Below are positions 40,073 to 64,000 of a DNA stretch of 64,000 nt, piece after piece. The translations under genes and the position numbers were made by a program. The first letter of the stretch is position 1; the number at the start of each line of letters is the position of its first letter. The notes beneath the pieces are model-generated. The model was not told the DNA's origin and made no database searches. It worked only from the letters and a program-made list of their open reading frames with translations. This DNA comes from an uncultured Armatimonadetes bacterium (GTDB lineage Bacteria > Armatimonadota > UBA5829 > DTJY01), in assembly GCA_963717145.1 (NCBI GenBank), contig OY970325.1, positions 4,992,001-5,056,000 on the forward strand, read 5' to 3'.

Positions 40073-40884
40073 GCCTCGGATTCGAGGAGATCGAACGCTA
40101 CAGCCGCCAGATACTCCTTCAGCAAGTCGGCGGCAAGGGGCAGGAGAAGCTGCTCGCCTCGAAGGTGCTGCTCGTGGGCGCGGGAGGTCTCGGCTCGCCT
40201 GCTTCGATGTACCTCGCGGCGGCGGGAGTCGGAACGATCGGCCTGATCGACGGCGACAAGGTGGACCTGACCAACCTCCAGCGCCAGATCGTCCACTTCA
40301 CGGACGACATCGGCAAGCCCAAGGTCGAGTCAGCGGCGGCCAAGCTCAACGCGATCAACCCGGCGGTGAATGTCGAGACCTACGAGACCCTCGCGCTGGC
40401 CGACAACAGCCTGGATATCATCAGCCGCTATGATTTCGTGATCGACGGCACCGACAACTTCCCGGCCAAGTTTCTCATCAATGACGCGTGCTATTTCGCC
40501 GGAGTGCCCTTCTCCCATGCGGGCATCCTGCGCTTCGATGGTCAGCTTTTCACAGTGATTCCCGGCCAGACGGCGTGCTATCGGTGCCTCTTCGGAGGTC
40601 CACCGCCTGCAAATGCCGTGCCGTCGTGCTCCCAGGCCGGAGTGCTCGGAGGAGTCGCGGGCGTGATCGGATGCCTGCAGGCCACGGAGGCACTGAAGTA
40701 CCTGCTCGGCGTCGGTGAACTGCTCACGGACCGCATGATGATATTCGATGCGCTCGCAATGCGGTTCAGAGAGGCGAGGTTCAAGCGCAATCCGAAATGC
40801 CCGCTCTGCGGAGAGAATCCGACGATCACCGAACTGCGTGACGAGGAGCAGGTCGCGTGTGATCTGAAGGCGGCGAGAGCATGA
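40069..40884 (+). CDS. MoeB/ThiF-family adenylyltransferase (HcyF-like)
   Basis: RYSRQI, GAGGLGS, TNLQRQ, DGTDNF, CYRC, CPLC. Confidence 0.92.
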   Translation: MSLGFEEIERYSRQILLQQVGGKGQEKLLASKVLLVGAGGLGSPASMYLAAAGVGTIGLIDGDKVDLTNLQRQIVHFTDDIGKPKVESAAAKLNAINPAVNVETYETLALADNSLDIISRYDFVIDGTDNFPAKFLINDACYFAGVPFSHAGILRFDGQLFTVIPGQTACYRCLFGGPPPANAVPSCSQAGVLGGVAGVIGCLQATEALKYLLGVGELLTDRMMIFDALAMRFREARFKRNPKCPLCGENPTITELRDEEQVACDLKAARA

Positions 40885-41291
40885 TCGTCATGCCGGCGGG
40901 AATTCTGGCTGATATTGTGGAGCATGCGAGACACGATGCGCCGAACGAGGCATGTGGATTGCTCGCGGGCAGCGAATCTACCATTGAAAAGTGCTATCGC
41001 CTGACCAATGTCGACGCAAGCCCGGAGCACTTCAGCCTCGACATCCGGGAACAGTTTGCCGCCGTGAAGGATATGCGGACGGCGGGTATCGAGATGCTCG
41101 GCGTGTACCATAGTCATCCGGCGACACCGGCGAGAATGTCCGCGGAGGACCTGAAGCTGGCGTTCACACCGGGGATCGCCTACGTGATCGTCTCGCTCGC
41201 GGACCCGGATCAGGCGGTCGTCAAGAGCTTTCGCATCGTCGACGGCAGTCCGGTCGAAGAAGAAGTCTCGATACAGGAGTTGGAGCAGTGA
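40881..41291 (+). CDS. JAMM/Mov34 (M67) metalloprotease (HcyD/Mec-like)
   Basis: PNEACGLL...YHSHP...MSAED. Confidence 0.92.
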   Translation: MIVMPAGILADIVEHARHDAPNEACGLLAGSESTIEKCYRLTNVDASPEHFSLDIREQFAAVKDMRTAGIEMLGVYHSHPATPARMSAEDLKLAFTPGIAYVIVSLADPDQAVVKSFRIVDGSPVEEEVSIQELEQ

Positions 41292-47434: not shown

Positions 47435-48892
47435 CTAGCCCACTGCCTCGCGCAATCGCGCGGCCTCACGCTCGATGACCGCACTGCCCGAACGCGACGA
47501 AGTGGCGACCCTCAGAAGCGTACCACCTGATGAGGGCATGATGCTGGCCCTGACCACAGTCCGGGCCACATAGAAAGAACAGAATACCCCAAGCAGCAAT
47601 ATCGCGAAACCGGCACATACCGCGGGCAACCCCGGGTTGCTTGCCACCTGGAGGCCCGTGTAGCTCACAGCGCTTTCCATGGTGATCCGGAATCCTTTGT
47701 ACTTGGCGGAACCGGAGATTGGTATCCAACCCAGGTTCGACCACGCGTCCTGGCCCTTATACTCCGGAAACCTGTCGTTCACCATGACCTCCGCAGCCGG
47801 GTGAATCGGCATGAAGCTGGCACTGATCTCTTCCCCTCCCACGTAGTCCGGAGCGAAATCGTGGACGAATATGCTGAGCTTCTGCTTGCCGATCTTTATC
47901 TGTCGGGGCTCCTGCTCCGAAACCATGTATAACTTGCCCTCCGGCCCGTTCTTCGTATCGACGCTGATCGGGACTCTCACGGATTCCCCATTCGCCCCGG
48001 TCACGACCAGATAGAAGCCCACGATCCCATAATCCGATTGATAGAAGGACACTCCGCGATAGGTCAGTGGGTGGTCGACGTCGACAACCTTGCCGGCGAC
48101 GAGCTTATCCGCATCATACACCTGCAGATCGCTCTTGTAGGCGGTCGGGTTGTGCTCGTCGTCGTGCTCGATGTAGAACTTCTTCAGTGCGACTCGGAAC
48201 TTGAGGTCCGCCGGTTTTTCCGAACGGCTCGGGAAGTAGCTGTTCGTGGATCGGCCTTCAACGATGGTTGTATAGCCCTCCAAGCCCAGCATACTCCCCA
48301 CCATACCGCCAAGAAAGATCACAAGAACGCTGACATGAGCAAGATATCGGCCCCACAGATTGGCGGTTCCCCTGGCTGCGTAGATCGAGATCTCGTCGCC
48401 CGTCCGCTCTTCACGCACCGAATAGTGCGCCGCGCGAAGCGCCCCCTTGACCTTCTCAGCCGTTTCATCAGTACCGGAGTCAGTCTGGATTGTCTGTGAT
48501 CCCTGCATCTTGCCTACCCGCGCGTGGCCGATCGCGACCTCCGGACGATATGCCTGCTTCCATGTACGGCTGAACCTGTTGATGCTGCACACCGCCAGGT
48601 TCGCTCCGATGAGCAGGATGATCAGTTGATACCAACTCGAGCGGTACAGATCAGTGAAACCGAGTGCTTTGAGGGTGGCGTAACCCCCGGGCCCAAACCG
48701 GGCATAGTCCTCAGGCGAAGCTCCTTGAGGGATGATGGTCCCGATGACCGAGACGGCGGCCAGTAACAGGAGCAACGTCACCGCCGTGCGCATCGAGCTG
48801 AAGGTCGTCCACAATATCTTTCCTAGATTCGTGCCGTCATTCGTATCAACGATATGCTCGGCGGTGTCTTCCGGGGCGAGACGCTCTGACAT
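47435..48892 (-). CDS. resB: Cytochrome c biogenesis protein ResB/Ccs1 (system II)
   Basis: FSSMRTAV.LL...SVIGTIIPQ, DLYRSSWY...CS..R, AHVSVLVI, VDHPLTYRGVSFYQSDY, YTGLQV..NPG. Confidence 0.9.
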   Translation of the reverse strand: MSERLAPEDTAEHIVDTNDGTNLGKILWTTFSSMRTAVTLLLLLAAVSVIGTIIPQGASPEDYARFGPGGYATLKALGFTDLYRSSWYQLIILLIGANLAVCSINRFSRTWKQAYRPEVAIGHARVGKMQGSQTIQTDSGTDETAEKVKGALRAAHYSVREERTGDEISIYAARGTANLWGRYLAHVSVLVIFLGGMVGSMLGLEGYTTIVEGRSTNSYFPSRSEKPADLKFRVALKKFYIEHDDEHNPTAYKSDLQVYDADKLVAGKVVDVDHPLTYRGVSFYQSDYGIVGFYLVVTGANGESVRVPISVDTKNGPEGKLYMVSEQEPRQIKIGKQKLSIFVHDFAPDYVGGEEISASFMPIHPAAEVMVNDRFPEYKGQDAWSNLGWIPISGSAKYKGFRITMESAVSYTGLQVASNPGLPAVCAGFAILLLGVFCSFYVARTVVRASIMPSSGGTLLRVATSSRSGSAVIEREAARLREAVG

Positions 48893-49249: not shown

Positions 49250-49669
49250 ATGAGAATCAGAGTGCTCATCTTATTGGTCCCATGTTTGGTTTTGGCGATG
49301 ATTCTGGGCCACGGGATACTCTCCGCGCAGGGCGGCAGCGCCTATGGCGGAGTGGAGAACTGCAAGATGTGCCACCCGGACATTTACACCGAATGGTCGA
49401 AGTCCGACCATGCGCGAGGATTCGAACTCCTGACAAACGTCGGCCAGGAGAAGAACGCTGAGTGCCTCCCTTGCCACACCACCGGATACGGTAAGGGCGG
49501 TTACGTGGACGAAGCCACAACCCCCGGATTGAAAGGCACGGCTTGTGAATCGTGTCACGGACCTGGCGCCGGTCATATGGGCGACAAGACCAAGATCACC
49601 AGGAAGCCGCCCGCCGGGACGTGCGAGGGCTGTCATCAGGCGACAAATATCCATTCTGTGACTAAGTAG
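49250..49669 (+). CDS. Small tetraheme cytochrome c (c554-like)
   Basis: Signal peptide; 4 CxxCH (CKMCH, CLPCH, CESCH, CEGCH); YGG.E.C..CH...W..S.H pattern. Confidence 0.9.
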   Translation: MRIRVLILLVPCLVLAMILGHGILSAQGGSAYGGVENCKMCHPDIYTEWSKSDHARGFELLTNVGQEKNAECLPCHTTGYGKGGYVDEATTPGLKGTACESCHGPGAGHMGDKTKITRKPPAGTCEGCHQATNIHSVTK

Positions 49670-49686: not shown

Positions 49687-51111
49687 ATGTCAAGGAAGTT
49701 TGAGACCAAACCAGTTCTGACTCTTATCGCCATCGGGATCTCGCTCCTGGTCGGTGGGATGCTGATCCCGTGGGCAGCGGATGCGCAGAGTGCGCCGCCG
49801 CAACCGCCCACGCCCAAGGCGGAGGTGGTTTCTACCGCGAGGTTCGTCGGTAGCCAGGGATGCCAGACCTGCCACTCGCAGGTCGCGGAACCTTGGTTGG
49901 CCAGTCCGCACGGTCGGGCTCTCACGCAAGAGGGCTTGCCGGAGGAACGGCGAGGCTGCGAGGCCTGTCACGGAGCGGGGAGCGCGCATGTCGGAAGTGC
50001 ATCGGCCAGCAAGATGTCTATTCCGATCGCGGCGGATCCGCCGGCGGCAAACAGCCTGTGCGGATCCTGTCATTTCGATCGCGAGCCGTCAACTGCACCC
50101 GATGCCCCGCACAGCTTATCCAAGGCTGAATGGACACGAAGCGCGCACGCGCGAAAGGATCTGTCCTGCCTGTCATGCCACTCCGGACATCCGAACGCGA
50201 ACGAGAAGGCGCTCGTGAGACCGGCCAAGGACCTGTGCCTGAGTTGCCATGCATCAGTGATGGAGGACGCTCCCGGCAAACCGGCGGCATACACCCATTC
50301 GCCTGTTGCGCAGGGACAGTGTACGTTGTGCCACGATCCGCATGGGGCGGCTGACCGGCGTATGGTGGCGGATGATGTGAATAAGGCGTGCGAAACGTGT
50401 CATGATGCCGGGACTCCCGAGATGGCAGCCGGCCATCAAGGGTTTGCCGTCAAGGGTGCGAAGTGCATTTCCTGCCATGACCCGCATTCACACAAAGCTT
50501 CCGACAAACTCATGCGGACGAAACAGCACATGCCGTTCAAGCAGCGAAACTGCGTGCTCTGTCATGGCAAGCCCGGGGCTGATGGGGCAGCGACTCTGGC
50601 TAAGCCGGCCAAGGAGCTGTGCGTATCCTGCCATCCGACGGGCAGCATCATGAAGGACGGCGAGAAAGCCCATGCTCCGGCGAAGGAGGGGCTTTGCACG
50701 GTATGCCACGACCCGCACGCGTCGAATGCCAAGGGCTTGCAGAAGACTCGTACTGCCTATGCGTGCTTCACCTGCCACAGCAAGGTTGAGATCGATACCC
50801 TATCCGCCCACAAGCATGGGGCGTTCAACAGCAATATGGACTGCACCGGTTGCCACAAGCCGCACAGCTCGCCGCAGGAGAAACTCCTGGTCAAGGCTCA
50901 GGGTGACCTATGCGGGCAGTGCCACAAGCACTCGGGCTCACATCCGATGGGAACCAGGAAAGACGGCACTCCCGTCATCGACCCGAATACCAGCAAGCCG
51001 ATGGTGTGCGCCAGTTGCCATAACCTGCACGGATCGAAATTCGCCATCCTGGCCAAGGCGGACAAAGGCAGAGACCTCTGCCTGCTGTGCCACCAGATGG
51101 AGCACAAGTAG
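49687..51111 (+). CDS. 16-heme cytochrome c (DmsE/MtrA-like N-terminus, paired CxxCH repeats)
   Basis: Signal peptide; 16 CxxCH motifs counted. Confidence 0.9.
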   Translation: MSRKFETKPVLTLIAIGISLLVGGMLIPWAADAQSAPPQPPTPKAEVVSTARFVGSQGCQTCHSQVAEPWLASPHGRALTQEGLPEERRGCEACHGAGSAHVGSASASKMSIPIAADPPAANSLCGSCHFDREPSTAPDAPHSLSKAEWTRSAHARKDLSCLSCHSGHPNANEKALVRPAKDLCLSCHASVMEDAPGKPAAYTHSPVAQGQCTLCHDPHGAADRRMVADDVNKACETCHDAGTPEMAAGHQGFAVKGAKCISCHDPHSHKASDKLMRTKQHMPFKQRNCVLCHGKPGADGAATLAKPAKELCVSCHPTGSIMKDGEKAHAPAKEGLCTVCHDPHASNAKGLQKTRTAYACFTCHSKVEIDTLSAHKHGAFNSNMDCTGCHKPHSSPQEKLLVKAQGDLCGQCHKHSGSHPMGTRKDGTPVIDPNTSKPMVCASCHNLHGSKFAILAKADKGRDLCLLCHQMEHK

Positions 51112-52137
51112 ATGTATCGCACAGCTAAGCTCTTTGCAGCCTCGATAATTTGCGTGATGGCGCTAAGTATACAGGCGAGCGCTGCTCCGGAAAGCAGGAC
51201 ATTCAAGCTCACCTACTCGTACGTAGCCCACGGGTATTCGACCAGTCAGCGGTTCTCAAAGCCGAGCGGTCTCTTCTACGATACGAACCGTGACGAGCTG
51301 TATGTTGCCGACACGGGCAACAACCAGATCGTGATCTTTGATAAGAAGGGGATGCCGACCGCGCGGATCCGGCATAACGTGGAGGTCGCCTCATCGACCG
51401 ACAGAAAGTCACTCCCTGGAGAGCCCAAGAGCATTCTTGTCCGCAAGAACGGCGACATCCTGGTCACGGACAACCTGTGCAACTACGTGGACGTCCTCGA
51501 TTTTCGTGGCCGTTCGCTCGAGAAGATCTGGCCCGCGGACCTGCTCGGCTTGTCCCGAACCAAGGTTCAACCGCGCTGCCTTGCTATCGACGCTGCACAG
51601 AACATCTACGTGAGCGTGACAGGTGCGGCCAGCAGTATCCTGGTTTTCACACCCGAGTTCAAACTCAAGTCCGAGATAGGCCGGATCATAGGAGGCGGTA
51701 CCATGAAATCGGTGACCGGCCTCTGGGTGGACAACAGCGGCAAGGTATATGCCACGTATTCCCAGGGTGAGTGCGTGCGAGTCTACGCGGCGGATGGGAA
51801 GCAGCTTACGAGCTTCGGCGGACACGATGTCGGTTACGAGAACTTCTCCCTGCCGGTCGGTGTCGTGACGGACGCACAGAGCAACATCTGGGTGGTCGAC
51901 ACCCTCAGGCACATCGTCAGCGCGTTCAAGCAGGAGACAACGGACTCCGGTCTCACCGCGACCGTAATCCACGCGCTCGGCGGATACGGCAGCGGGGCCG
52001 GAGAGATGTCATTCCCGACGGCGCTTGCCGGTGACGGATCGAGCAAACTGTTCATACTAGAGGGAGCAGGCGCGAGGCTCCAGGCATTCAGCATAGATTT
52101 CGCGGCGCCCGCCCAGCAGGCGGGTGTGAAAACCTGA
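51112..52137 (+). CDS. NHL-repeat beta-propeller protein
   Basis: FSKPSGL...LYVADTGNNQI; FSLPVGV..D...IWVVDT. Confidence 0.88.
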   Translation: MYRTAKLFAASIICVMALSIQASAAPESRTFKLTYSYVAHGYSTSQRFSKPSGLFYDTNRDELYVADTGNNQIVIFDKKGMPTARIRHNVEVASSTDRKSLPGEPKSILVRKNGDILVTDNLCNYVDVLDFRGRSLEKIWPADLLGLSRTKVQPRCLAIDAAQNIYVSVTGAASSILVFTPEFKLKSEIGRIIGGGTMKSVTGLWVDNSGKVYATYSQGECVRVYAADGKQLTSFGGHDVGYENFSLPVGVVTDAQSNIWVVDTLRHIVSAFKQETTDSGLTATVIHALGGYGSGAGEMSFPTALAGDGSSKLFILEGAGARLQAFSIDFAAPAQQAGVKT

Positions 52138-52263: not shown

Positions 52264-53328
52264 ATGAAAGTGATGGTAGGGCTTCTAATCACGGCGCTTG
52301 CGTTGTGTGGGGGCGCGGCTCTGGCCGGCGACTATCACAATAGCGCCACCCTGGTCTGCTCCGACTGCCACACGATGCACTACAGCGCTCAGCACGGCTA
52401 TGACGGAGTTACTCCGATCACGCTGGGAGCAGTTGGGCCGAACGAGAACCTGATCAAGGCTCCGACCCGCAATGCTCTGTGCCTGACGTGTCACGACAAT
52501 CAGGCCTATGCTCCGGACGTCTATGCAGCCAATACGGGGTCCCACGTTCGCAACGCAGGCGCTCTGAACAAGCTGGGTGATGCCGGCCTGTACGCTGAGT
52601 ACAAGGGACACACCCTGGGCTCACTTGCGTCCGCTCCCGGCGGCACGTGGGCGCCAACAATTCCGGCAGAGGGAGAGGCAGAGGGTATGACCTGCGGCAG
52701 TTGTCACGGCACGCACGGTTCGACCTACTACCGCAACCTGAAGAACAAGCCGGGCGGTTCAGCCGACAACACCTATGTCACGTATGCGGTCGGCACCAAC
52801 GACCTGACCAAGGATGTCTTCGAGCGCGATGCGACCCTCAACCAGGTCTCGACGCACTACGATGTCGCCAACGTTGACTTCAACGAGCCTGACTCGACGA
52901 AGTCGGCCTATGCCAACTGGTGCAAGAGCTGCCATACCAACTTCCACGGCGTATCCGGTGGAACTGAGGTCGGCGGCGCATCCGGCGGCGACATCAGCAG
53001 CCACTCGACCGGAGTGGAAGGAGTGCCCTGGCACCGACACCCGAGCGCTGACGTGAACATTGGTCAGAACGGCAACTCCAAGCTGACCCAGTACAACCAT
53101 GTCACGCATGTGAACAAGGTCAAGGTCATGAGCAATTCCGGCGACTGGGGCAATACGAGCACCGATGTCACCCCATCGTGCTTCTCCTGCCACAAGTCTC
53201 ACGGAAATCAGAATGCCTTCGGTCTGATTCACATGAGCGGCACCGGAACTCTGAGCGAACAGGGCGACGATGGCGGCGGCAACAACGTGAGAGGTCTCTG
53301 CAGACAGTGCCATTCGCAGGGCACGTAG
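52264..53328 (+). CDS. Hexaheme cytochrome c, OmcS-like paralog 1
   Basis: Signal peptide, strong SD AAAGGGAGG; YH-x6-CSDCHTMH, CLTCH, GH.L, CGSCH..HG...YRNL, WCKSCH, HP, SCFSCHKSHG, LCRQCH. Confidence 0.85.
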   Translation: MKVMVGLLITALALCGGAALAGDYHNSATLVCSDCHTMHYSAQHGYDGVTPITLGAVGPNENLIKAPTRNALCLTCHDNQAYAPDVYAANTGSHVRNAGALNKLGDAGLYAEYKGHTLGSLASAPGGTWAPTIPAEGEAEGMTCGSCHGTHGSTYYRNLKNKPGGSADNTYVTYAVGTNDLTKDVFERDATLNQVSTHYDVANVDFNEPDSTKSAYANWCKSCHTNFHGVSGGTEVGGASGGDISSHSTGVEGVPWHRHPSADVNIGQNGNSKLTQYNHVTHVNKVKVMSNSGDWGNTSTDVTPSCFSCHKSHGNQNAFGLIHMSGTGTLSEQGDDGGGNNVRGLCRQCHSQGT

Positions 53329-53371
53329 TCCGCGAATCGACATACATCACGGTAATGTCGTTGTAGTATTG

Positions 53372-53459
53372 CCTGTCGAGGCGAGGGATGGATCTCTCGC
53401 CTCGACAGGTTGCCTTGTGAGTAAACGGTTTCCGAGGGGCACCCCTCGGAAGCTGTTTT
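53372..53459 (+). terminator. Two consecutive hairpins after OmcS-like gene 1; the second has a T tract
   Basis: CCTGTCGAGGCGAG...CTCGCCTCGACAGG and AAACGGTTTCCGAGGGG-CA-CCCCTCGGAAGCTGTTTT. Confidence 0.65.
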
Positions 53460-53490
53460 GCTAGGTGCGCCGTTGACTTACAGAAGGGAC

Positions 53491-54537
53491 ATGGATGTGA
53501 ACGCACGATACCTTACCTTCGGAATGGCCTGTCTATTCCTTTCCTTCACCAGCGTTTCCCTGGCAGGGCTGACTCACGTTGGAAACAGCCTGGTCTGCTC
53601 TGATTGTCATTCGATGCACTATAGCATGCGGCACAACTACCGCGGCGGCGCAACCGATCTGGTCACGGATGCGAACGGACCCTTTGGGAATCTCTTGAAG
53701 GCTTCACCTAACGAGCTGTGCCTCGCGTGCCACGATCAGACAAGCTTCGCGCCGGATGTGCTCGGAGAGCCGTCCGGTGAGTATGTCAGGCAGGCAGGCG
53801 CGCTTAACCGGCTGGGGGTAGAGGAGTCCGGCTACAAGTCATGGACGGGCCACACACTGGAAAGCACCGATGTCGCTCCGGGAGGCACGTGGTCCAATTC
53901 CACCACCGGGCTTCGATGCATCGATTGCCATGCGCCTCATGGAATTCCGACTCAGTTTCGCAATCTGTGGACAGACAGTGCTGCAGGCCATAACTTCGAG
54001 AACAAGACCCTGACCTACGCTTACGGCGCAACCAACGACACGAACAAAGACGTCTTTCTCCACGACGGCTTCGACGTCGCCTACCGATATGGCGTCCTCG
54101 GCACGGATTTCAACGAACCCGACGAGACGAAGTCGGCCTACGCCAACTGGTGCCGGAGCTGCCACACGAACTTCCACGGCGCTTCCGGTGGGTCTGAGGT
54201 CGGGGGCGTGAGTGGTGGCGATACGGGCGGTTCCGACGGAGTCGCCTGGGTCAGGCATCCGAACGCTGATACCAACATTGGTGCGCACGACGCAGAGATG
54301 TCCAGCCTGGCTGAGTTCCAGTCCCATGCCAACCGGGCGAAAGTCATGAGCCATTCCGGCACGTGGGCCTCGGCTGCGGATGTTACCCCTTCATGTTTCT
54401 CCTGCCACAAGGCACACGGGAACAAGAACGCGTTTGCCCTCATCTACATGTCCGGAAGCGGAACTGTCACTGAGGAAGGTGACACCGGAGGGTCTCATAG
54501 CGTGCGAGATCTATGTCGCCAGTGTCACGAGCAATAG
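53491..54537 (+). CDS. Hexaheme cytochrome c, OmcS-like paralog 2
   Basis: TH-x6-CSDCHSMH, CLACH, CIDCH.PHG...FRNL, WCRSCH, HP, SCFSCHKAHG, LCRQCH. Confidence 0.85.
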   Translation: MDVNARYLTFGMACLFLSFTSVSLAGLTHVGNSLVCSDCHSMHYSMRHNYRGGATDLVTDANGPFGNLLKASPNELCLACHDQTSFAPDVLGEPSGEYVRQAGALNRLGVEESGYKSWTGHTLESTDVAPGGTWSNSTTGLRCIDCHAPHGIPTQFRNLWTDSAAGHNFENKTLTYAYGATNDTNKDVFLHDGFDVAYRYGVLGTDFNEPDETKSAYANWCRSCHTNFHGASGGSEVGGVSGGDTGGSDGVAWVRHPNADTNIGAHDAEMSSLAEFQSHANRAKVMSHSGTWASAADVTPSCFSCHKAHGNKNAFALIYMSGSGTVTEEGDTGGSHSVRDLCRQCHEQ

Positions 54538-54583
54538 AGCCGGTCGCTGCGCAGTTTGCGTAGTTGTTCTCACGAGAACGCCG

Positions 54584-54698
54584 ACCGCTGGTCCTGAGTT
54601 CGCCGGTGAATGACGGCGTGTAACGAAGGACGGCCCTACTGCACCGAGCCGTCCTTCGTTACACGCCGTCATTCACCGGCGAACTCAGGACTAGCGGT
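54584..54698. repeat. Long REPIN-like hairpin, family B copy 2 (inverted relative to copy 1)
   Basis: GTCCTGAGTTCGCCGGTGAATGACGGCGTGTAACGAAGGACGGC-loop-reverse complement. Confidence 0.85.
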
Positions 54699-55115
54699 GG
54701 GGAAAACTGTTGTTCCACCTCGAATCCAGGATCATCCTCTCACTTGGTGCCATTCCAGGCAAAACCTGTCACTTCTACCAGTATCGTTCCAGCCCCTCAC
54801 CGTGGCACATACTATTACCAGGGAATCCCAGGATCGTGGCACATATTGTCAGCCGTAACTAGTGGCAAATGAGGGTATACAACAGTTAGGCTGAAATGCC
54901 CTGAGGCGGTCAGAAACATACGAGGATGGGTAAAATATTCTTGGCGGACTCGACAAGAACTGAAAAACGTGCGATAATGAGTAGTAAGTGGCGGGCGCAT
55001 CCGACAGAACCGGGTGCTGCAAGCCACGGATTTGCCCGTGCTCGAGGGATTCCCCGAGGGCATGCGACAACGCTATCTCATCAACTGGCGAATGAAACTG
55101 GGGTTACGGGGGTTC

Positions 55116-55133
55116 TCGTGAAATATTTCACGA
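55116..55133. promoter_or_regulatory. Rex-like operator upstream of OmcS-like paralog 3
   Basis: Perfect 18-bp palindrome TCGTGAAATATTTCACGA; candidate promoter TCGACA(54950)-17 bp-GATAAT(54973) upstream. Confidence 0.75.
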
Positions 55134-55185
55134 ACCCTTCGAGGCACGGTTCATTCCTGGCGAGAGGTATTTGGGGGGATGGCAT

Positions 55186-56142
55186 ATGTCGAGGTTGTTA
55201 GTACTTATCGAATGTGCGGTCTTGACCGTAGGCATCATGGCGACATGCGGTTCAGCCCAGGCGGCGAACTATCACTTCCGCGATACGCTGATCTGCTCTG
55301 ACTGCCACATCTCGCACGCCAGCGCCAGCCACGGGGACGGAGGCGACGCGGCCTCTTACGGCGAGCCTCCGAATGGTAACCTGCTCAAGTCTTCATCATC
55401 CAGCGACGTGTGTCTGCGCTGCCACGATGGACAGGCCGGTGTGCCTGACGTCGTCGCCGGGGATGTGAACAAGCCGTCTGAGCCATATGATGGACAGGAA
55501 CGGGCGGCCGGCGCCTTCGCCGATGGTACCGCGGACAACTGGAAAGGGCACAACCTGCCCGGACAGGGCAGCGTCGGACCAGGCGGTTGTGACTCCTGTC
55601 ACGAGCCTCATGGGAACACCAGTTACCGCAACCTGCGAACTCTCGACGGTTCTGGAGACGAGTTGGTGGCCTTCGTAAACCCCGCCGCGGCCGCGTTGGA
55701 CAAGTACAGCCGTGCGAACGTGGGCTACGGAGGGAATATCGGAGACAAGCTCTGCGGGGGTTGCCACGGTTTTGGCGCGATATCGAATACTCGTTCTTCG
55801 GGCGGACAGCACTTCAATCGGCACCCCAGCACCAGCAGCGAGGCCGTCATCTCCATGGAATCCGGGCGATCCAGTATCGACCCGATCCACTGGGTTTCCG
55901 GAGAGGGCAGCGGTTTCACGGCGGGCGAACTCGTAGTGCCGCGCGTGCCGTTCGCGGTGAGTTCAGCCACCAGTTACTCCGATGCCAGGACGGTGTCCGC
56001 CGCCAACGAGGTGTCCTGCCTGTCATGCCACAAAGCCCACGGCTCAGTGCACGCATTCGGCATGATCTGGCCGTACGGGAGCGGTGACGGAGCGGCCGGC
56101 GGCTCCGGCTGCAACCAATGCCACAACATCTCCCGCGAGTGA
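55186..56142 (+). CDS. Hexaheme cytochrome c, OmcS-like paralog 3
   Basis: YH-x6-CSDCHISH, CLRCH, GHNL, CDSCHEPHG...YRNL, CGGCH, HP, VSCLSCHKAHG, CNQCH. Confidence 0.85.
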   Translation: MSRLLVLIECAVLTVGIMATCGSAQAANYHFRDTLICSDCHISHASASHGDGGDAASYGEPPNGNLLKSSSSSDVCLRCHDGQAGVPDVVAGDVNKPSEPYDGQERAAGAFADGTADNWKGHNLPGQGSVGPGGCDSCHEPHGNTSYRNLRTLDGSGDELVAFVNPAAAALDKYSRANVGYGGNIGDKLCGGCHGFGAISNTRSSGGQHFNRHPSTSSEAVISMESGRSSIDPIHWVSGEGSGFTAGELVVPRVPFAVSSATSYSDARTVSAANEVSCLSCHKAHGSVHAFGMIWPYGSGDGAAGGSGCNQCHNISRE

Positions 56143-56144
56143 CG

Positions 56145-57279
56145 TTACTTCAGAACGCCCACGATTCCCGTAGCGGTCTGCTCTATCCCACTCTGCAGAT
56201 CCTTCGGGCCGCTGAGGAATACGCCAAACCGACCTACAGCCAAATCCAGGTGGTAGTATCCGAAACCGGATAGCTCCGTGTACGCGGGCAGCGTCTCGAA
56301 GACGGTCTGCTGCTGTCCGGCGTGGTAGGTCTGCAGGAACTTCTCCGCAGTCGCCTTAGTGCGATAGTCCACGAGCCGAACGTCGACAAACTTCCCGCCG
56401 TCGTTGAGCTGATACCGCGTGTCTATCGCATCGTGGAAATGCTTCTTGTACGTGACTTCACCCAGTTTCGCGTTGCCGACATCCTTGAGTAGCACCTTCA
56501 GCTCGGCTTCGCCGTAGGTTGCAGTCTCGTCCAGATATCGAGGCGTCCCACCAGTTGCTCCCTGTTGATGCGCAATGGCAGCGACTTGCGACTCCCCTGA
56601 TGTGTCGTTCTTGACCGGAGCCGTTTCGGTGGCTGTGTTATTGGCCGTGTGCGCGGCAGCCGTGCTTCCGCCCAGGCTCACCAGTATATCCGGCGAGGAT
56701 TTCATCATGGATTTCGCCATTGCGGATACGGCCAGCTTGGAGAGCTTGCCGAGCGAGGAGATTCGGCCGATGTCGAAAACCTTGACGCCCTCCGCTCCCG
56801 TCTTGCTTATGGTGGCGGCCCACATAATATCCGCGGTTCGAGCGTTCACCGAGCCGCGCGCTGAACGAGATCGACGGATACGAGTCAGAGCCGACCCGCA
56901 CCTCGCCATATTCCTCGACTACGCCGATGACATACGCATCCACGTTAAGTGCGGGCTGAAGCTTCTGGCACATCTCCTGCGTTATGCCCTCAGTGATCCG
57001 AACGCTCTGTGCCTGCAGGGCCGAGTAGACCACCCCCGGCTCCACAACATCGAAGCCGCCGGTTGAGAGCAGGTACGTGACAACCGTGTTCGTAAGCACG
57101 CGTCCGGCATCCTGATCCTTGCTGACGTTGTCAAAGGGAAGGACGGCTATCCTTACCCGCTGACCCGCGGGCCTGTTGACGAACACCTGAGTCGAAGGGC
57201 CTCCGTCATTGCACCCGGAGACCAGGGCAAGCACCGAGAATGCCATCAGGGCTTTTACGAGTAGAGAGCTTTTCTTCAT
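56145..57279 (-). CDS. CsgG/GNA1162-like lipoprotein, frameshifted near 56855
   Basis: Lipobox LVSGC; RIAVLPFDN...GGFDVVE...VIG.VEEY...SISFSARL then VNARTADIMWAA in the other frame. Confidence 0.75.
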
Positions 57280-57311
57280 GTTGCACCAATCCTCATGTTC
57301 TGGTTGATTCC

Positions 57312-59027
57312 TCAGAGATATCTAGCATAATACAGGGCAAAATGTCTTTGCCAGTCTATCAGTCCGGTATTCCCACTGTGAAAGTCGTAATATAACTCCA
57401 GCGATGAACGATCCAGGAACGAATGCGATAGACGAAGCACGGATCCTCTTCTCCGCTGGCCAACAAACTGCCAGTTGATCCAATCCCACTGCTTGTCCGA
57501 TTGGAAGTTGTAGTTCAGGCTAAGGTTACTCGCGGGATCGATCTGCCACCTCACGCCCAGCGCCGGTGACAGCGTTTCGGATATGCTCGATCCATTGCTA
57601 ACCTGGTAGGAAAGCCTCAGGTTCAGGCTGAGTTGGTAGTTGGGCATCCACAGAGCGTCGACGTCCACCGCATCCGTGGTCTGTGATACGGGACTGGCGT
57701 CCGCACTGAATGAATCGGTCTGCGAGCGACGATAGGAGGCGCCCATCGACATCCCGCCGGCGGTCCTGGTCCTGAAGGAGATGCCCGCAAAGCTCCCACT
57801 GAACCCCCCGTCCGACCCAATCGTGGACTTGTTTCGTCCATAGTCGAGGCTGATATCCGCGGCACGGCTGAGTGCGCTCTGGAGTGAAACCTGGAGCGAA
57901 TTCTGCGAAGAGCCGGAACTCAGCGCACCGGCGTAATCCGATCTGGACAGCGATGCGTTCAGGACGCTCTGGTCGCTCAACCGAGCGGACACCCCCAGGT
58001 TGCGATTGTTGGAGTCGAAGGAGATGACGCGGCCCAGAGCGTCGGTGATCGACGTCTCCTGTCGCCGATCGGTGTAATCGGCGCTGAGACCCGGCAATAC
58101 CTGTGCTCTCACATTGAGGGAAAGCGCATTATCGCCGGAATTGCTGTTCACTGCGGCTGCTCCCTGGTGGCTGGATTGGTCAGAATACTCCAGGCTCGCA
58201 GCGATCGCCCTGGTGGGGGTCGCCTGGAGTCGGAGGACCTGGCGCTTCGTATCCATTCTGGAGTTGCCCTCGGCGCGCTCATTGTCCGTCGCGTAGTTGC
58301 TCAGTTCGCCAAAGAGGGTGAGTCCCTGCAGCAGAGTCTGATTCAGGAAGACCGACGATCTCCGAGTCATCTGCGTATTCCCGGAGGATCCGCTGTACGC
58401 CGATGTCTGCCTTGACTGGTCGAAGGTGAATCGGAGCGGCATCAGGTCGTAGTAGGAACCGAGCAGCCAGGTGTTCGAGGCGTAGCTGGACGCCGAATCC
58501 CCGAAGGAGCTGCCGGACACATTTCGCGAGTACTGCAGGTTCAGGACGGGATATGCCGGTTGCGAGATAAGCATGCTGAGGTTATAGTTGGACGAATTTC
58601 CGATCGACGTGCCGCCCTGGCCGAGTGTTTCGCTCTGATAGTCGTTGCGGTTCACTCTGCCCATCAGGGTGTAGCTGGGTTGGCGGTAATACAGGTTGAT
58701 CCCCAGGCTTCTGTTGTCCTGACTGCCGAACTGGTCGTTCGTGGAGGATGTACCGAGCGTTACATCGCTTATCAGGGCGGAGAAGGGCATAACAGGCCCG
58801 CGCATGGCAAGGCTGTAGTTCGTCGAAAGATGACCGTCACCATTCGGCGATTCCCCCGCTTTCTTGTTCTCGAAGAAGTCGTATCGCATCTGTACCTGCA
58901 GACCCAGAGTTTGCGCACCCGTGCATTCATGTGACTGCGCGAGTAAGACCAGTGCAATCAAGAGCGTCAACAGTATCATCGGTGCGCCGTAACCGCCAAT
59001 GTTCGCGGTATTCGCGTATTCTGACAT
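57312..59027 (-). CDS. Putative outer-membrane beta-barrel protein (start uncertain)
   Basis: Signal-like N-terminus; Ser/Asn/Tyr-rich alternating beta-strands throughout; ends FALYYARYL. Confidence 0.65.
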   Translation of the reverse strand: MSEYANTANIGGYGAPMILLTLLIALVLLAQSHECTGAQTLGLQVQMRYDFFENKKAGESPNGDGHLSTNYSLAMRGPVMPFSALISDVTLGTSSTNDQFGSQDNRSLGINLYYRQPSYTLMGRVNRNDYQSETLGQGGTSIGNSSNYNLSMLISQPAYPVLNLQYSRNVSGSSFGDSASSYASNTWLLGSYYDLMPLRFTFDQSRQTSAYSGSSGNTQMTRRSSVFLNQTLLQGLTLFGELSNYATDNERAEGNSRMDTKRQVLRLQATPTRAIAASLEYSDQSSHQGAAAVNSNSGDNALSLNVRAQVLPGLSADYTDRRQETSITDALGRVISFDSNNRNLGVSARLSDQSVLNASLSRSDYAGALSSGSSQNSLQVSLQSALSRAADISLDYGRNKSTIGSDGGFSGSFAGISFRTRTAGGMSMGASYRRSQTDSFSADASPVSQTTDAVDVDALWMPNYQLSLNLRLSYQVSNGSSISETLSPALGVRWQIDPASNLSLNYNFQSDKQWDWINWQFVGQRRRGSVLRLSHSFLDRSSLELYYDFHSGNTGLIDWQRHFALYYARYL

Positions 59028-59041
59028 ATCGATTATCAGTC

Positions 59042-60505
59042 TCAGTGACATCCCGAGGTGGTAGCGCAACTGTTCTCGGAGTACGCTCCACCGTTGGCAT
59101 GAGTGTAGGACGTGATTCCCTGTCCTCCCGCCAGATAATAAGGCGGACCGTCACTCACGTATACAATGAGGTGTCTCCGTTTGAACCCATGCGGCACGGC
59201 GGAGTGACACTGGAAACACCCGGCCCGCGCATGCTCTGACTTGCGATGGAGATTGTCACTCCCTTTGCGGAAATTCGTCCGGTTCGCGTCGCCTCCGCCC
59301 TGCCCATACGTGCTCCAGTCATGGCAGACGAAGCACAGATCGGACTGGGTGCCGGTCCTCCCGGTGTTATCGGAAGCGCCCGCCACCGCCTTGAAGCGCC
59401 TCTTGAGCGAGTAGTTGAATTGCGATCCATGAGGGCCCTGTGCGCTTCCGGGACTCGAGTCACTCGCGTGACAGTCGGTGCAGGCCATTGCGGAGTTCGG
59501 CCCCCACGGGCTGACATAAGCAGGCGGATTCGCTGACCCGAACACGACATCATCGGTAGGGACAGATGAAGCCGTTTGACCCGTAACATTGTGATAGGCC
59601 GGATTGCCGGGGCTGAACTCCAGCCCCTGGTCCGTTTCGCGTGTCCCGTCAGTCGTGTAGGGCGCAACACTCCCCCATGACCAGGAGGAGTGGCACTTGA
59701 GACAGAGATAGTACTCGTGCTCCGTCGCCGTGGACTGGAACTGCTCGACCGCATAACTGGTCGGCGCCGTCCATGGAGCAGTTGAGAAGGTCGGTCTGAC
59801 ACCCCAGGAGCCCAGAAGCATCTCGCCGATATTCGAAGACTGGGGCGCTCGCAGGCCCGACTTGGCGAAGTGCGTGTTATGGCAGTCCACGCATTCCACA
59901 TGACGGTTCGATCCGCTGAGAAGCGGGTTCGGATTCACGGCGACCGATGCACCCTCCGCGGTACTATCGTGCTTGCCGCGCTGATTGGCGACTCGATGGG
60001 AATAAGCTCTGTTCATCTGCGTCTGAATGTCGATGGCGCCCGTCGGCCTGAAACCCGTTCCATGGCACGTGAAACATGTCTCCTCTTCGGTCCGGCCGGT
60101 CATGTGGGGATATGCGCCTGTGAGATCGCCCGAGCCGTGCGGATTGTGGCACTGCGTACAAGAGCCGACGGGCTTGCTGTTCATGCTGGAAGCCGAAGCC
60201 GAGTGGCCGCTCATGTTATATTGCGTCTGCCCGTAGTATGAGCGCAGACTCCCCGTGTGGCAGGTGTAGCAGAGATCGTTGTTGTTCGCTGTCCACAGCC
60301 CGAAATCCTGGTTGGCCGTTCCATGGCCCACGTGACATTGGGCGCAACTGCCCTTCGGAAGAGACGTATCGCGCTGCACGCCGGATATGGCGCTTCCATG
60401 AGGCGTGCGAGTGTAGTATCCGCCATCTGCTTCGGCGCGCAGAGTCAGGCCGACGAGGATGAGAGGCATGATCGCTGCCCATGCTATCCGGAGATATGCG
60501 CTCAA
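59042..60505 (-). CDS. Multiheme cytochrome c (9 CxxCH plus a terminal CX5CH); start uncertain
   Basis: CAQCH, CYTCH, CTQCH, CFTCH, CVDCH, CLKCH, CTDCH, CFVCH, CFQCH, CATTSGCH. Confidence 0.88.
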   Translation of the reverse strand: MSAYLRIAWAAIMPLILVGLTLRAEADGGYYTRTPHGSAISGVQRDTSLPKGSCAQCHVGHGTANQDFGLWTANNNDLCYTCHTGSLRSYYGQTQYNMSGHSASASSMNSKPVGSCTQCHNPHGSGDLTGAYPHMTGRTEEETCFTCHGTGFRPTGAIDIQTQMNRAYSHRVANQRGKHDSTAEGASVAVNPNPLLSGSNRHVECVDCHNTHFAKSGLRAPQSSNIGEMLLGSWGVRPTFSTAPWTAPTSYAVEQFQSTATEHEYYLCLKCHSSWSWGSVAPYTTDGTRETDQGLEFSPGNPAYHNVTGQTASSVPTDDVVFGSANPPAYVSPWGPNSAMACTDCHASDSSPGSAQGPHGSQFNYSLKRRFKAVAGASDNTGRTGTQSDLCFVCHDWSTYGQGGGDANRTNFRKGSDNLHRKSEHARAGCFQCHSAVPHGFKRRHLIVYVSDGPPYYLAGGQGITSYTHANGGAYSENSCATTSGCH

Positions 60506-60519
60506 ATGACTATCGCATC

Positions 60520-61542
60520 CTACTTGAAGTGGCATTGCTGGCACCCCGAGATCGTGTCCGCCCCGCTTTCGATGTAAGGCCAGACCATACCATACTTGTA
60601 CTTACTCCCGTGAGCCTTGTGGCACGAAAGGCAAGTCACGGTGTCTCCGACGCCGCCGGTCGTGTTGCTTCCCAGTTGGCTGCCGTACCTGAGTCTCGGC
60701 ACGCCCAGGGCCGAGTCGCCGATATCACCGCCGAAGCCCGTGTAGTCGCCGGGCGTTCCCAATTGCCAGTTCGTGGCGTCTGCGTGGGGGTATGCTCCGC
60801 CGATCTCGACGTTGCTCGGGTGACCCTTGAAGTGGGCAGGGGCGCTCCCCGCAGAATTCTCTGACAGCGCATCGTGACAGTCCGCGCACCAGGAGCTGAT
60901 GTTGTTCTGTGCGTAGAATGCCACGTTTGACGCGTTATAGGCTACAGACGGATTCGGATTCACGATATCAACAGGCGTGGTTTCCTTGATCTGCGTGCCG
61001 ATGAGAATGTCCCACGAGCCCGGATGCCTGGGATTCGGATCCGATATGAGATTCCGGTAGTTCGGGGCGCCGTGAGTATCATGGCAGTCCGAGCAGAGCA
61101 GCCCGCCGGCTTTCGTGTAGGTGCTCGACAGTGGAGCCGTGACTGAGACGGTGGGGCTCACGTCGTGGCCATAGGGATTCGCCGCACCGATAAAGTCGCC
61201 CTGAAAGAAGCCGGCGCTGGATCCGTACTTGCTGTCGTAGGAGTTCGAAACGACATTCGTCGGGCTCGCGGATGTACCGGTCGAGACGATGTCGGGCGCT
61301 CGGGAATCCGTGCCATTGTGACAACTCATACAGAGCCCTATCTGGCCCATGGAGTTCTTCAGCAGATGCTCGGTCGGCGTCAATACCTCGCCCTGGCTGC
61401 TGGCGTGCTGGGTGTGGCAGTCCGAGCAGATGCTCTCGGTGACGTGATGATACTCCCCCGACATTGTGTTCCGAGGAAGAAGCAGGCATACGCCTGCGAC
61501 TGCGACTATGGCGGCTATCAGCCTCTTGGTCTGGAAACGCAT
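60520..61542 (-). CDS. Hexaheme cytochrome c, OmcS-like paralog 4
   Basis: YH-x6-CSDCHTQH, CMSCH, AG.F...GH, CSDCHDTHG...YRNL, SSWCADCH, HP, VTCLSCHKAHGS, CQQCH. Confidence 0.85.
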   Translation of the reverse strand: MRFQTKRLIAAIVAVAGVCLLLPRNTMSGEYHHVTESICSDCHTQHASSQGEVLTPTEHLLKNSMGQIGLCMSCHNGTDSRAPDIVSTGTSASPTNVVSNSYDSKYGSSAGFFQGDFIGAANPYGHDVSPTVSVTAPLSSTYTKAGGLLCSDCHDTHGAPNYRNLISDPNPRHPGSWDILIGTQIKETTPVDIVNPNPSVAYNASNVAFYAQNNISSWCADCHDALSENSAGSAPAHFKGHPSNVEIGGAYPHADATNWQLGTPGDYTGFGGDIGDSALGVPRLRYGSQLGSNTTGGVGDTVTCLSCHKAHGSKYKYGMVWPYIESGADTISGCQQCHFK

Positions 61543-61570
61543 AAACTGACCCTGCTTCACGCGCACACTC

Positions 61571-61649
61571 TGTCATTCTGAGCGAAGTGAAGAATCCGGC
61601 TGATCGAGCAAGGCGACTCGCTGGATTCTTCACTTCGCTCAGAATGACA
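61571..61649. repeat. REP/REPIN-like palindrome, family A copy 2
   Basis: TGTCATTCTGAGCGAAGTGAAGAATCC...GGATTCTTCACTTCGCTCAGAATGACA. Confidence 0.85.
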
Positions 61650-61662
61650 CGTATAATCCGGG

Positions 61663-62649
61663 TTAGAGCCCGGCCGGTCTGAACGGTTCGAAGGGCCGGG
61701 CAAGAGCGAAAACCTGCATCCTGCGGGATCCTGACTCCAGGACGATCACGTGCCCGAAGCTGTCTATATCAGCATCGACAGGGTAGAAGAGCATGCCTTC
61801 GCCCAAGCCGTAGTTGCCGAATCTCCGAAGGAACATGCCGGTCCTGTCAAATACCTTCAGCCCGTGCTGCGCCCTGTCCACAATCCAAATCTGGTCATTC
61901 CGATCCAGGAACATTGCGGTCGGAAACGCCAGATCCTGCTCAGCCTCGCCGTGCAGGCCGAACCGGTACAGGTACTTTCCGTTCCGGTCGAACACCTGGA
62001 TCGGAGGCCCAATGGAATCGAGCACGTATATTCGGCCCTGGCGGTCTACGGCCACATCCTGGAGCATCTTGAACTTATACTGGTCCGACTCGAGAGCCGC
62101 AATGCGGAATCTGATCTTTCTCTGTTTGTCAAACACGCATATCTCGTTGTTGGCCCTATCCACAACATACAGGTTGCCATCCCGGTCGAAGGTCATTCTC
62201 CCGGGCTTGGGCTGCTCATTGCCCTCAACGGCAGGGAGTTCGAGAGTGGTCAGCTCTTCCTTCGCGCCGATGATCTTTATCGGCCCACCCTCGTTCTCGG
62301 CGACGTACACGTCGCCTTTGGAGTCAACTGCCACCGCCAGGGGGGACTTCAGGCCTTGCTTCGGCCCGTATCGGAATCTCGGTATGCCCTGCCGGCTGAA
62401 CGCGTCCAGCGTTCCCGTCTTGACGTCTGACACGTATATCAGCCCTGATCGCTCATTCAGGGCCAGCGAAGCGGGGTCGCCAAACCAGCTCTTGCCATCA
62501 TAGCCATTGACCGCGTAACGGAATGTGAAGTCCTGTTCCGCCTGGTCAAAGACGGCAGCGCGCGAGATGCCGTCTGTGAATGCACAACAGAACAAAACGA
62601 CGACTGCGAGAAGCACTTTCAGAGCCACAACCAACCTGGCTAACCTCAT
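61663..62649 (-). CDS. NHL-repeat beta-propeller protein
   Basis: PLAVAVDSKGDVYVAE, QDVAVDRQGRIYVLD, FG..G.GEG...YP. Confidence 0.9.
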   Translation of the reverse strand: MRLARLVVALKVLLAVVVLFCCAFTDGISRAAVFDQAEQDFTFRYAVNGYDGKSWFGDPASLALNERSGLIYVSDVKTGTLDAFSRQGIPRFRYGPKQGLKSPLAVAVDSKGDVYVAENEGGPIKIIGAKEELTTLELPAVEGNEQPKPGRMTFDRDGNLYVVDRANNEICVFDKQRKIRFRIAALESDQYKFKMLQDVAVDRQGRIYVLDSIGPPIQVFDRNGKYLYRFGLHGEAEQDLAFPTAMFLDRNDQIWIVDRAQHGLKVFDRTGMFLRRFGNYGLGEGMLFYPVDADIDSFGHVIVLESGSRRMQVFALARPFEPFRPAGL

Positions 62650-62744: not shown

Positions 62745-62913
62745 ATTATACACGATTTCCCTCGATTTGTCCAGTCTGAGCGCATTGTGAACGAATTCAC
62801 GAGCCGGGACGGCAGAGGTCAATCGGAACGGGGCAAAAAGCCCGGAATCGCGGGGCGCGCCGTTCGCCAAAAAAAATTTAACCGTACACTAACGTTCGAG
62901 AAGGAATTCACAA
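62745..62913. promoter_or_regulatory. Divergent promoter region with Rex-like boxes
   Basis: Minus strand TGGACA(62773-62768)-17 bp-TATAAT(62750-62745); TTGTGAACGAATTCACGA (62785-62802); TCGAGAAGGAATTCACAA (62896-62913). Confidence 0.7.
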
Positions 62914-62966
62914 AGTCACGTGTCGAATCAATGAAACGACGCGAACTCGGTATCAGGGAGGGCTCT

Positions 62967-64000
62967 ATGAGTGCAGTTCTCACAACCTGCGGGTTCTGTA
63001 GCTGCGGATGCGGGGCGTATGTGCAGCAGAGGAATGGTCGTGTCGTCGCCCTATGTCCGAGCACCGGCCACCCCGTTGCGAACGGAAAGCTTTGCACACG
63101 GGGATGGAACGGGATTCCTGCCGTCCTCGGCAGACAAAGGTTGCGCTCGCCGCTCATCAGGAAGGGCGATGCGCTCCAGCCGGCTTCCTGGGATGAGGCA
63201 ATCTCATTCACCGTGTCCTCCCTCCAGCGTTTCTTCCCTGAAACCATCGGCGTCATCGGATCCGCAAAGACCACCAACGAGGAGTGTTACTCGCTCGTCA
63301 AGTTTGCCAGAAGCGTCCTGCACACCCCCAACGTCGACGGCCCGTGTCGGTTCTCCGACGCATCGGTCGTCTCAGGCCTCATGGGTACGGTCGGGACCCC
63401 GGCGGCGCAGGTCACGCTGAACGAGATTCCGACCGCCGGCTCAATGCTCATCGTCGGCGGAAATGCCTTCGAGCAGTTGGCCCACGTCGGCTCGAGGATC
63501 GAGACCGCGAGGGACAACGGCTGCCACATCGTGGTCGCCGATCCTCGGACCACACGTCTGGCGCCGTTCGCCGAGGTGTTCCTCCATCCGCAGGCCGGGA
63601 CCGATCTCGTCTGGGTCCGCGCGCTCCTAAAGACGATAGTTGACCAGGGGCTGCACACGGAGAGCGCTCCAGGCCTCCCGGGCTTCGAGGAACTCAGGGT
63701 GTCGTTGAACGGCTTGTCGGTGGACGACGTGAGCGGGGCCTGCGTGTTGGATGGCGAGAGTCTTAGAGAGGTAGCCCAACTCCTTGCGAGCAATCCGCGA
63801 CCGATCGTCATGTTCGGGCTCGGAGTCCTTCAGCAGGCACAATCGACGCAGATCGTCAGCGCCCTTGCGGACATTGCCATCCTTCTGGGCGGCGCGGTCT
63901 TCCCGCTCAGAGGGCAGAACAACGCTCAGGGCGCCTGCGACATGGGCCTGACCTTCGATCTTCTGCCCGGCTACCGCAGCATGAGCGATCCTGATGCCAG
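62967..64000 (+). CDS. Partial FdhF-like molybdopterin oxidoreductase (runs off the window; not in the ORF track)
   Basis: SD GGGAGG; MSAVLTTCGFCSCGCG...GKLCTRGW...RLRSPLIR...SWDEA...GSAKTTNEE...NVD...PQAGTDL...PLRGQNNAQGACDMG. Confidence 0.85.
   Translation, partial: MSAVLTTCGFCSCGCGAYVQQRNGRVVALCPSTGHPVANGKLCTRGWNGIPAVLGRQRLRSPLIRKGDALQPASWDEAISFTVSSLQRFFPETIGVIGSAKTTNEECYSLVKFARSVLHTPNVDGPCRFSDASVVSGLMGTVGTPAAQVTLNEIPTAGSMLIVGGNAFEQLAHVGSRIETARDNGCHIVVADPRTTRLAPFAEVFLHPQAGTDLVWVRALLKTIVDQGLHTESAPGLPGFEELRVSLNGLSVDDVSGACVLDGESLREVAQLLASNPRPIVMFGLGVLQQAQSTQIVSALADIAILLGGAVFPLRGQNNAQGACDMGLTFDLLPGYRSMSDPDA

Follow-up and report, generated by a model that had tools for sequence, protein, structure and literature searches.

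Compact hexaheme cytochromes of the OmcS family in a divergent osc-type locus of a probable Armatimonadota lineage

Four genes for hexaheme cytochromes, here called H1 to H4, lie in a 64,000-nucleotide stretch (the window) of the genome of an uncultured Armatimonadetes bacterium (assembly GCA_963717145.1, contig OY970325.1, positions 4,992,001 to 5,056,000), and their relation to the filament-forming cytochrome OmcS of Geobacter sulfurreducens is the subject of this report. H1–H4 are true, divergent relatives of OmcS: they have the OmcS fold, retain the complete set of 12 heme-ligand histidines and belong to compact clades that stand apart from canonical OmcS. Judged by gene content, the locus is a divergent version of the osc (omcS-companion) cluster, arranged in two operons, and the bacterium probably chains proteins of the H1–H4 type end to end to carry electrons outward.

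Compact relatives of OmcS

Each of the four proteins contains exactly six CxxCH motifs and carries, behind a hydrophobic leader recognised by eye, an N-terminal H-x6-CxxCH-x2-H string at exact spacing, followed by the common motif order GH..CxxCHxxHG..(Y/F)RNL..CxxCH..HP..CxSCHKxHG..CxxCH. The last histidine of the string is the equivalent of OmcS His16 and is encoded at 52378-52380 (H1), 53617-53619 (H2), 55315-55317 (H3) and 61405-61407 (H4). A first-pass annotation of the window had pointed out the string and its spacing in all four proteins, the shared downstream order and a length of about 320-355 amino acids (aa), shorter than OmcS; the reading frames, the quoted N-terminal strings and the spacing were verified, the order reads the same in H1–H4, and the measured lengths are 318-354 aa versus 432 aa for the OmcS precursor. 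Its picture of an OmcS-like mature N-terminus holds for the motif and its spacing and not for the start itself, which by eye is two residues longer than in OmcS (G-D-Y-H and similar).

In H1, six conserved histidines lie outside the heme motifs (H25, H39, H116, H151, H259 and H313), five of which are kept in 124/124 rows of an alignment centred on H1 and the sixth in 123/124, the exception being a misaligned H4. A joint alignment of 128 rows combined 93 compact proteins, four tandem modules (see below) and 31 canonical OmcS-type proteins, the latter being proxies from metagenome loci, found by the OmcS N-terminal motif, rather than the G. sulfurreducens genes. It has exactly 12 columns that are mostly histidine and that are common to the canonical rows, and the alignment with OmcS suggested in the first pass thus lines up all 12 heme histidines: every one of these columns, including the His2 and His16 equivalents, is filled in H1–H4, and the His16 column is histidine in 128/128 rows.

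Profile searches of the PDB returned OmcS (6EF8) as the best match, with an E-value of 5e-12 for a profile of four sequences and of 7e-14 and 4e-24 for larger profiles of about 120 sequences. The evidence on the fold covers AlphaFold2 models of mature H1 and mature H4, which reached a predicted local distance difference test score (pLDDT) of 86.4 and 89.2, respectively. For both models the only Foldseek match at E<0.001 was 6EF8. In VIA-align, the H1 model aligned to 6EF8 with Z 12.7 (root-mean-square deviation 4.2 Å, 259 aligned) and the H4 model with Z 14.2 (3.6 Å, 259 aligned; 48,161 chains), and the next-best rows followed at Z 5.5-5.7.

The cores of the compact clades measure 289-331 aa versus 407-437 aa in canonical OmcS types, and still shorter groups exist (256-266 aa and 235-245 aa). 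Relative to OmcS, eight segments with a total of about 96 residues are absent from the compact proteins; the stretch between hemes 5 and 6 accounts for 38 of these. H1–H4 are not strict OmcS orthologues, given their length and their place outside the canonical OmcS clade, which has a support of 100/100 and is separated by a long branch from all compact proteins. A scan with Pfam and NCBIfam found no OmcS-specific family, only generic paired-CXXCH and similar matches. OmcS homologues have been collected by requiring a length within 10% of OmcS (PMC12977616), and length filters of this kind in Geobacter surveys would miss the compact proteins.

H1 and H2 are 55% identical, and all other pairs share 29-37% (H4 about 29% with H1 and H2). 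In a quick tree of the 128 rows, H1 and H2 form one clade (support 100) in which H2 has its own sub-clade (100), H4 belongs, with an H4-decaheme fusion (P0246), to a separate clade, and H3 sits on a long branch. A single clade of H1–H4 was rejected in an approximately unbiased (AU) test on a 32-row subset (p-AU 7.6e-9), and with it the idea that the four genes are recent duplicates; on this phylogeny the paralogs are old, separately conserved clades. Five fetched relatives with H3 as best hit (L128, L132, L139, L140 and L141) contain, between hemes 2 and 3, an additional CxxCH that H3 lacks, for a total of seven. They also carry extra His and are candidates for a branched or 'leaky' OmcS-type subunit.

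First-motif histidine, gene fusions and the adjacent decaheme

In OmcS, 11 heme ligands are provided within the chain and one by a neighbour (PMC6584659), His-16 binding heme V of the adjacent monomer (PMC13319180). The first-pass annotation had read the N-terminal string as a signature of this inter-subunit contact, but CxxCHxxH is an ordinary paired-CXXCH repeat, which is non-random without being diagnostic. It occurs at 38/154 motifs in the cytochromes of this genome with four or more hemes, eight of the 38 with the full H-x6 spacing, and at 847/1848 motifs in 44 related 42-heme proteins, so that the string alone can show neither inter-subunit ligation nor polymerisation. What is informative is its position at the first motif, since a histidine in this repeat pattern would serve the preceding heme pair and a first motif has no such pair in its own chain; this reading of the repeat is taken from sequence rather than derived from a structure. 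First-motif CxxCHxxH is found in 5/19 genome cytochromes with four or more hemes, namely H1–H4 and the adjacent decaheme, and in 0/44 of the related 42-heme proteins, and an outward-facing His16 equivalent in the window hexahemes is likely. A complex prediction for an H1 homodimer with four hemes scored 0.12 against a mark of 0.42 and is evidence neither way.

Further support comes from natural fusions. Searching 1.84 billion representatives with a profile gave 3915 proteins at E<=0.001; the best 150 were listed, and 11 large ones among them were examined. In eight of the 11, a hexaheme module comes first and a decaheme-type domain starting with CxxCHxxH follows 31-43 aa later; the best window match of this second domain is the decaheme encoded next to H4 (E 2e-63 to 8e-5). 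A 12-heme fusion of this kind is present in two genome loci. The end of P0250, a protein of 1880 aa with 42 hemes, consists of four hexaheme modules in tandem, with gaps of 26-31 aa; the His16 equivalent is kept in each module. P0264 has two tandem modules and part of a third. These fusions support head-to-tail linking of hexahemes, and they point to a specific hexaheme-decaheme junction as well as to a head-to-tail order. The modules of P0250 and P0264 are about 240 aa each and group beside canonical OmcS in the quick tree. With cores of 235-266 aa, the shortest variants would set the minimal scaffold for engineered heme wires.

The H4 gene overlaps that of the decaheme, in the same order as in the fusions. 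In the decaheme family, the histidine of the first-motif CxxCHxxH is kept in 36/36 rows and the tenth, non-canonical motif is CX3CH in 34/36, the window protein having CX5CH instead. The family has about 13 conserved extra histidines for 10 hemes, a surplus that would be enough to close the far end, which makes the decaheme a plausible cap or anchor. Sixteen regions were fetched for a same-phylum comparison, seven of them with a gene that has H4 as best hit, and all four strong H4 orthologues (>300 bits) are followed by a decaheme gene. Gene order, overlap and fusions together link H4 to the decaheme, on which it probably docks, and H4 is a candidate adaptor between filament and decaheme. In 18 loci, the partner encoded with H1 is shorter and combines six canonical motifs with a wide non-canonical CXnCH.

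Gene neighbourhood and distribution

The plus-strand operon runs tetraheme, 16-heme, NHL1, H1, H2 and possibly H3, and the minus-strand operon NHL2, H4, decaheme, barrel and CsgG-like lipoprotein; ResB and a TolB-like propeller are encoded upstream, likewise on the minus strand (Table 1). In canonical OmcS-type loci the order is NHL propeller, OmcS, YncE propeller, barrel, two CsgG-like genes, peptidyl-prolyl isomerase (PPIase) and a long multiheme; H1, directly after its propeller, occupies the OmcS slot. The window propellers and the CsgG-like protein match their counterparts in these loci at an HHalign probability of 99.9%. The barrel matches canonical barrels weakly, at the sequence level (HHalign 86%, E 5e-6, 507 columns), and Eisenbacteria-type barrels at 98%, which in turn match the canonical ones at 95%. 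BLAST matches of the 16-heme cytochrome include the multiheme that ends canonical loci as well as 16- and 42-heme genes.

Table 1. Features of the locus, in window coordinates
Feature	Position	Strand	Remarks
TolB-like PD40 propeller	45030-47420	-	kept in same-phylum versions of the cluster
ResB/CcsB heme-attachment protein	47435-48892	-	PF05140, E 4e-80
Small c554-type tetraheme cytochrome	49250-49669	+	
16-heme cytochrome	49687-51111	+	akin to the 16-heme gene and to the C-terminal region of the 42-heme gene in related clusters
NHL beta-propeller 1 (NHL1)	51112-52137	+	HHalign 99.9% to the propeller upstream of canonical OmcS
H1, compact OmcS-type hexaheme, 354 aa	52264-53328	+	directly after NHL propeller gene
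H2, hexaheme paralog, 348 aa from ATG	53491-54537	+	alternative start TTG 53458
H3, divergent hexaheme, 318 aa	55186-56142	+	
CsgG/GNA1162-like lipoprotein gene	56145-57279	-	HHalign 99.9%; two reading frames in the assembly, one-base shift near 56851
Probable outer-membrane beta-barrel, start uncertain	57312-59069	-	weak homology to the barrel of canonical omcS loci
Probable decaheme	59042-60544	-	nine CxxCH and a terminal CX5CH; true start probably downstream of 60544
H4, divergent hexaheme, 340 aa	60520-61542	-	overlaps decaheme gene
NHL beta-propeller 2 (NHL2), upstream of H4	61663-62649	-	HHalign 99.95%

The frameshift in the lipoprotein gene is probably an assembly error, because its CsgG-like relatives encode one uninterrupted protein of 360-386 aa and related contigs from 4/4 runs (at most two samples) lack one base near 56851. 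The frame 56145-56909, for which an Atlas search gave no usable match, was rejected as a separate lipoprotein, as it corresponds to the latter half of the CsgG-like gene. H3 is preceded by a 650-bp spacer with a promoter-like site at 54950-54978. A cyclic di-GMP switch is present at omcS; when the window was scanned with Rfam for a riboswitch upstream, there were 0 matches.

Searches of GTDB genomes returned 204 matching stretches, and the counts of gene context cover the 79 returned loci with an H1-type gene, most of which have a single one. Their titles name Eisenbacteria, Krumholzibacteriia, Zixibacteria, Acidobacteriota, Armatimonadota, Gemmatimonadota, Bacteroidota/Ignavibacteria and others. 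An NHL propeller gene is present in 74/79 loci, a CsgG-like gene in 63/79 and a decaheme-type gene directly after H1 in 59/79. A 42-heme protein is encoded in 44/79; its motif spacing equals that of a 26-heme plus a 16-heme protein, which are split in other loci, and such a pair recalls GSU2495, with 26 hemes, and GSU2494, with 16. In four Acidobacteriota loci, the neighbours of a compact H1 include BLAST homologues of the PPIase and YncE genes known from canonical loci; three of the four loci have a homologue of the barrel gene too. The family is patchy, with 13/401 same-phylum genomes searched (this one included) and 0/10 in the same family, and the named close homologues of H4 are from Armatimonadota. 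Together, these data bring a probable Armatimonadota lineage and many uncultured phyla into the range of OmcS-type wiring, here with a subunit shortened by about a quarter.

Other parts that would be expected are present in the genome, namely two CcsA heme-attachment genes (L143:7231-8142 and 10138-10968), which lie beside a 7-heme cytochrome and about 0.9 Mb away from ResB, and a separate putative electron-conduit cluster at about 3,934,965-3,944,261 (L142:4966-14259). The latter encodes 9- and 11-heme cytochromes, two cytochrome b561-type proteins, a 26-heme protein with a NapC/NirT N-terminus, a DmsE/MtrA-like decaheme and an MtrB/PioB-like barrel. Its 26-heme protein was considered as the missing osc counterpart and rejected, as it differs in motif spacing, shares about 23% identity and belongs to this other cluster.

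Between H2 and H3 lies a near-perfect palindrome (54584-54698, arms of about 51 bp, -116.8 kcal/mol, z -19), which belongs to a genome-wide family resembling miniature inverted-repeat transposable elements or repetitive extragenic palindromes (MITE/REP-like) and occupying at least 40 places (80 strand matches; 40/124 candidates scored); in one sample, the contigs of two runs have a different sequence here. A further repeat is suggested by a spike in depth near 61557-61947. At the edges of the locus, genes at 40069-43603 look by eye like a sulfur-transfer set (MoeB/ThiF-like, JAB-like and sulfite-reductase/TusA-like), and 62787-64000 holds a molybdopterin gene like that of formate dehydrogenase alpha, divergent from NHL2.

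Candidate wire assembly and comparison with known systems

The reading towards which we lean, by a little, is that H1, perhaps with H2, forms an insulated wire of the OmcS type with the help of osc-like genes, and that H4 connects it to a terminal decaheme. The mechanism that we infer for inter-chain ligation, filament formation, subunit roles and use in extracellular electron transfer has three steps. A hexaheme would be open at both ends, its first-motif histidine ligating heme 5 of the preceding chain and its own heme 5 taking a histidine from the next, a step in which we have considerable confidence. H1, with H2 either alongside or in its place, would then be exported via the barrel and the CsgG-like lipoprotein with help from the NHL propeller and polymerise into an insulated wire, which we hold to be slightly better than an even bet; periplasmic cytochromes (the tetraheme and the 16-heme) would feed this wire for extracellular electron transfer. 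H1 and H2 are the likely filament subunits, with H1 the best candidate for the main one. Finally, and with fair confidence, H4 would act as an adaptor and not as a main subunit, its heme 5 receiving the N-terminal histidine of the decaheme, which would end or anchor the chain. The compact nanowire subfamily proposed in the first pass is borne out as far as family, fold and osc-like cluster are concerned, and goes too far in letting the motif mark all four proteins as wire-forming.

A number of observations weigh against this reading. The window hexahemes are only about 28-32% identical to OmcS-type sequences, a phmmer search of the PDB with the H1 sequence gave no match at E<=1, and the Foldseek query TM-scores to 6EF8 are low (0.38 for H1, 0.49 for H4). 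Because about 96 OmcS residues are missing, contacts between the proteins may not be the same as in OmcS. The locus has no PPIase, YncE-type propeller or 26-heme gene, and a tblastn search of the genome found a weak PPIase match only (E 0.001). Three of the seven best-H4-hit genes, all weak (120-204 bits), stand after NHL1 and not before a decaheme gene, so clade and slot are not strictly tied. In Geobacter, OmcS is the only one of four paralogs known to polymerise (PMC12977616), and its physiological role is disputed (PMC13194489, which summarises the osc operon).

Among the alternatives, we regard as unlikely a finite heme conduit, in which the 16-heme, H1/H2/H3, H4 and the decaheme, in one or few copies, would be relayed head to tail by histidines and span the envelope via the barrel. 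It would accommodate the occurrence of the hexaheme unit in chains of defined length (the fusions and the four-module P0250), the conservation of the paralogs as separate clades and the resemblance of barrel, lipoprotein and periplasmic multihemes to porin-cytochrome modules, but most of the 79 loci have just one H1-type gene, and a lone open-ended subunit must self-polymerise or be capped at once; moreover, H1 sits where canonical loci have OmcS. A still smaller chance is given to the view of the first-pass annotation that H1–H4 are equivalent, interchangeable subunits which homopolymerise or mix freely to give several wire types. Both open ends and the 12 histidines are indeed kept in all four proteins, H3 has its promoter-like site, and H3 relatives often lie outside the cluster, like omcJ; against this stand the rejection of a single clade, the old separation of the paralogs, the single polymerising paralog of Geobacter (PMC12977616), and the low identity of H4 to H1 and H2 together with its coupling to the decaheme through gene overlap, a conserved order and fusions. 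Least probable are non-polymerising secreted or periplasmic cytochromes, working as electron shuttle or enzyme with a heme 5 that stays open or is completed within a small soluble complex by a partner protein, for which the generic motif, the periplasmic assignment of GSU2501/OscC in a table of PMC13194489 and the separate MtrAB-like cluster that could do the export job can be cited, but which fit poorly with a first-motif histidine that is invariant in the joint alignment despite having, by the repeat pattern, no target in its own chain and is missing from the 42-heme proteins, and with the barrel and CsgG-like export genes conserved alongside.

The preferred reading of an H1/H2 wire with an H4 adaptor can be taken further, tentatively and with less than even odds, to an ordered heteropolymer with a rod of H1/H2 (and H3), H4 as adaptor and the decaheme as cap, its order fixed by N-terminal histidine donation, which we would liken to a chaperone-usher pilus with an own propeller chaperone for each hexaheme type. 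If true, this would be new, since the cytochrome nanowires found so far are described as homopolymeric only (PMC11936953); it would also explain the roles of OmcT and GSU2501 in Geobacter, and P0250 would be a ready-made covalent wire segment. The locus makes the start, the end and the paralog use of OmcS-type filaments testable.

The compact family is not described in the excerpts available of PMC9473688, PMC12307469, PMC8478452, PMC9671151 and PMC12133095, and no description of it was found in literature on these phyla or on heteropolymers, most of which was judged from less than the full text. OmcS homologues are reported for Geoalkalibacter and Anaeromyxobacter (PMC10954620). We consider as new the four-paralog, two-operon layout, the control by first-motif position and the tandem-module protein. 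The title of Shen et al. 2025 reportedly calls the osc machinery widespread and ancient, and that work may already list homologues.

Compared with OmcS (GSU2504; 6EF8 and 6NEF), H1–H4 share six CxxCH in order, six distal histidines including His2 and His16, and the overall fold along the entire length; they differ in being about 80-115 aa shorter, in the modest identity and N-terminal extension given above and in their separate clades. Several hexaheme paralogs in or near one cluster are also found with OmcT, OmcJ and GSU2501/OscC, and the H1/H2 tandem pair resembles omcS/omcT (PMC12977616), but the window paralogs are mutually far more divergent (29-55%). Canonical OmcS-type loci had no H4-coupled decaheme among those fetched, many of which are short. 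The osc cluster (GSU2505-GSU2493; PMC13194489 and PMC12977616) has in common with the window an NHL propeller before the hexaheme, a CsgG-like lipoprotein, a 16-heme cytochrome and, probably, a large barrel; the window locus differs in its division into two divergent operons, both of which have a propeller and a hexaheme of their own, in the addition of the decaheme, c554-type tetraheme, TolB-like propeller and ResB, and in doing without PPIase, YncE-type propeller and 26-heme genes. The OmcE cluster likewise combines multihemes, two propellers, a nanowire subunit and a barrel beside resB (PMC13712944), but OmcE is a tetraheme that matches the H4 model at Z 4.4 only; its extra-heme variants (PMC13712944) resemble the seven-heme relatives of H3.

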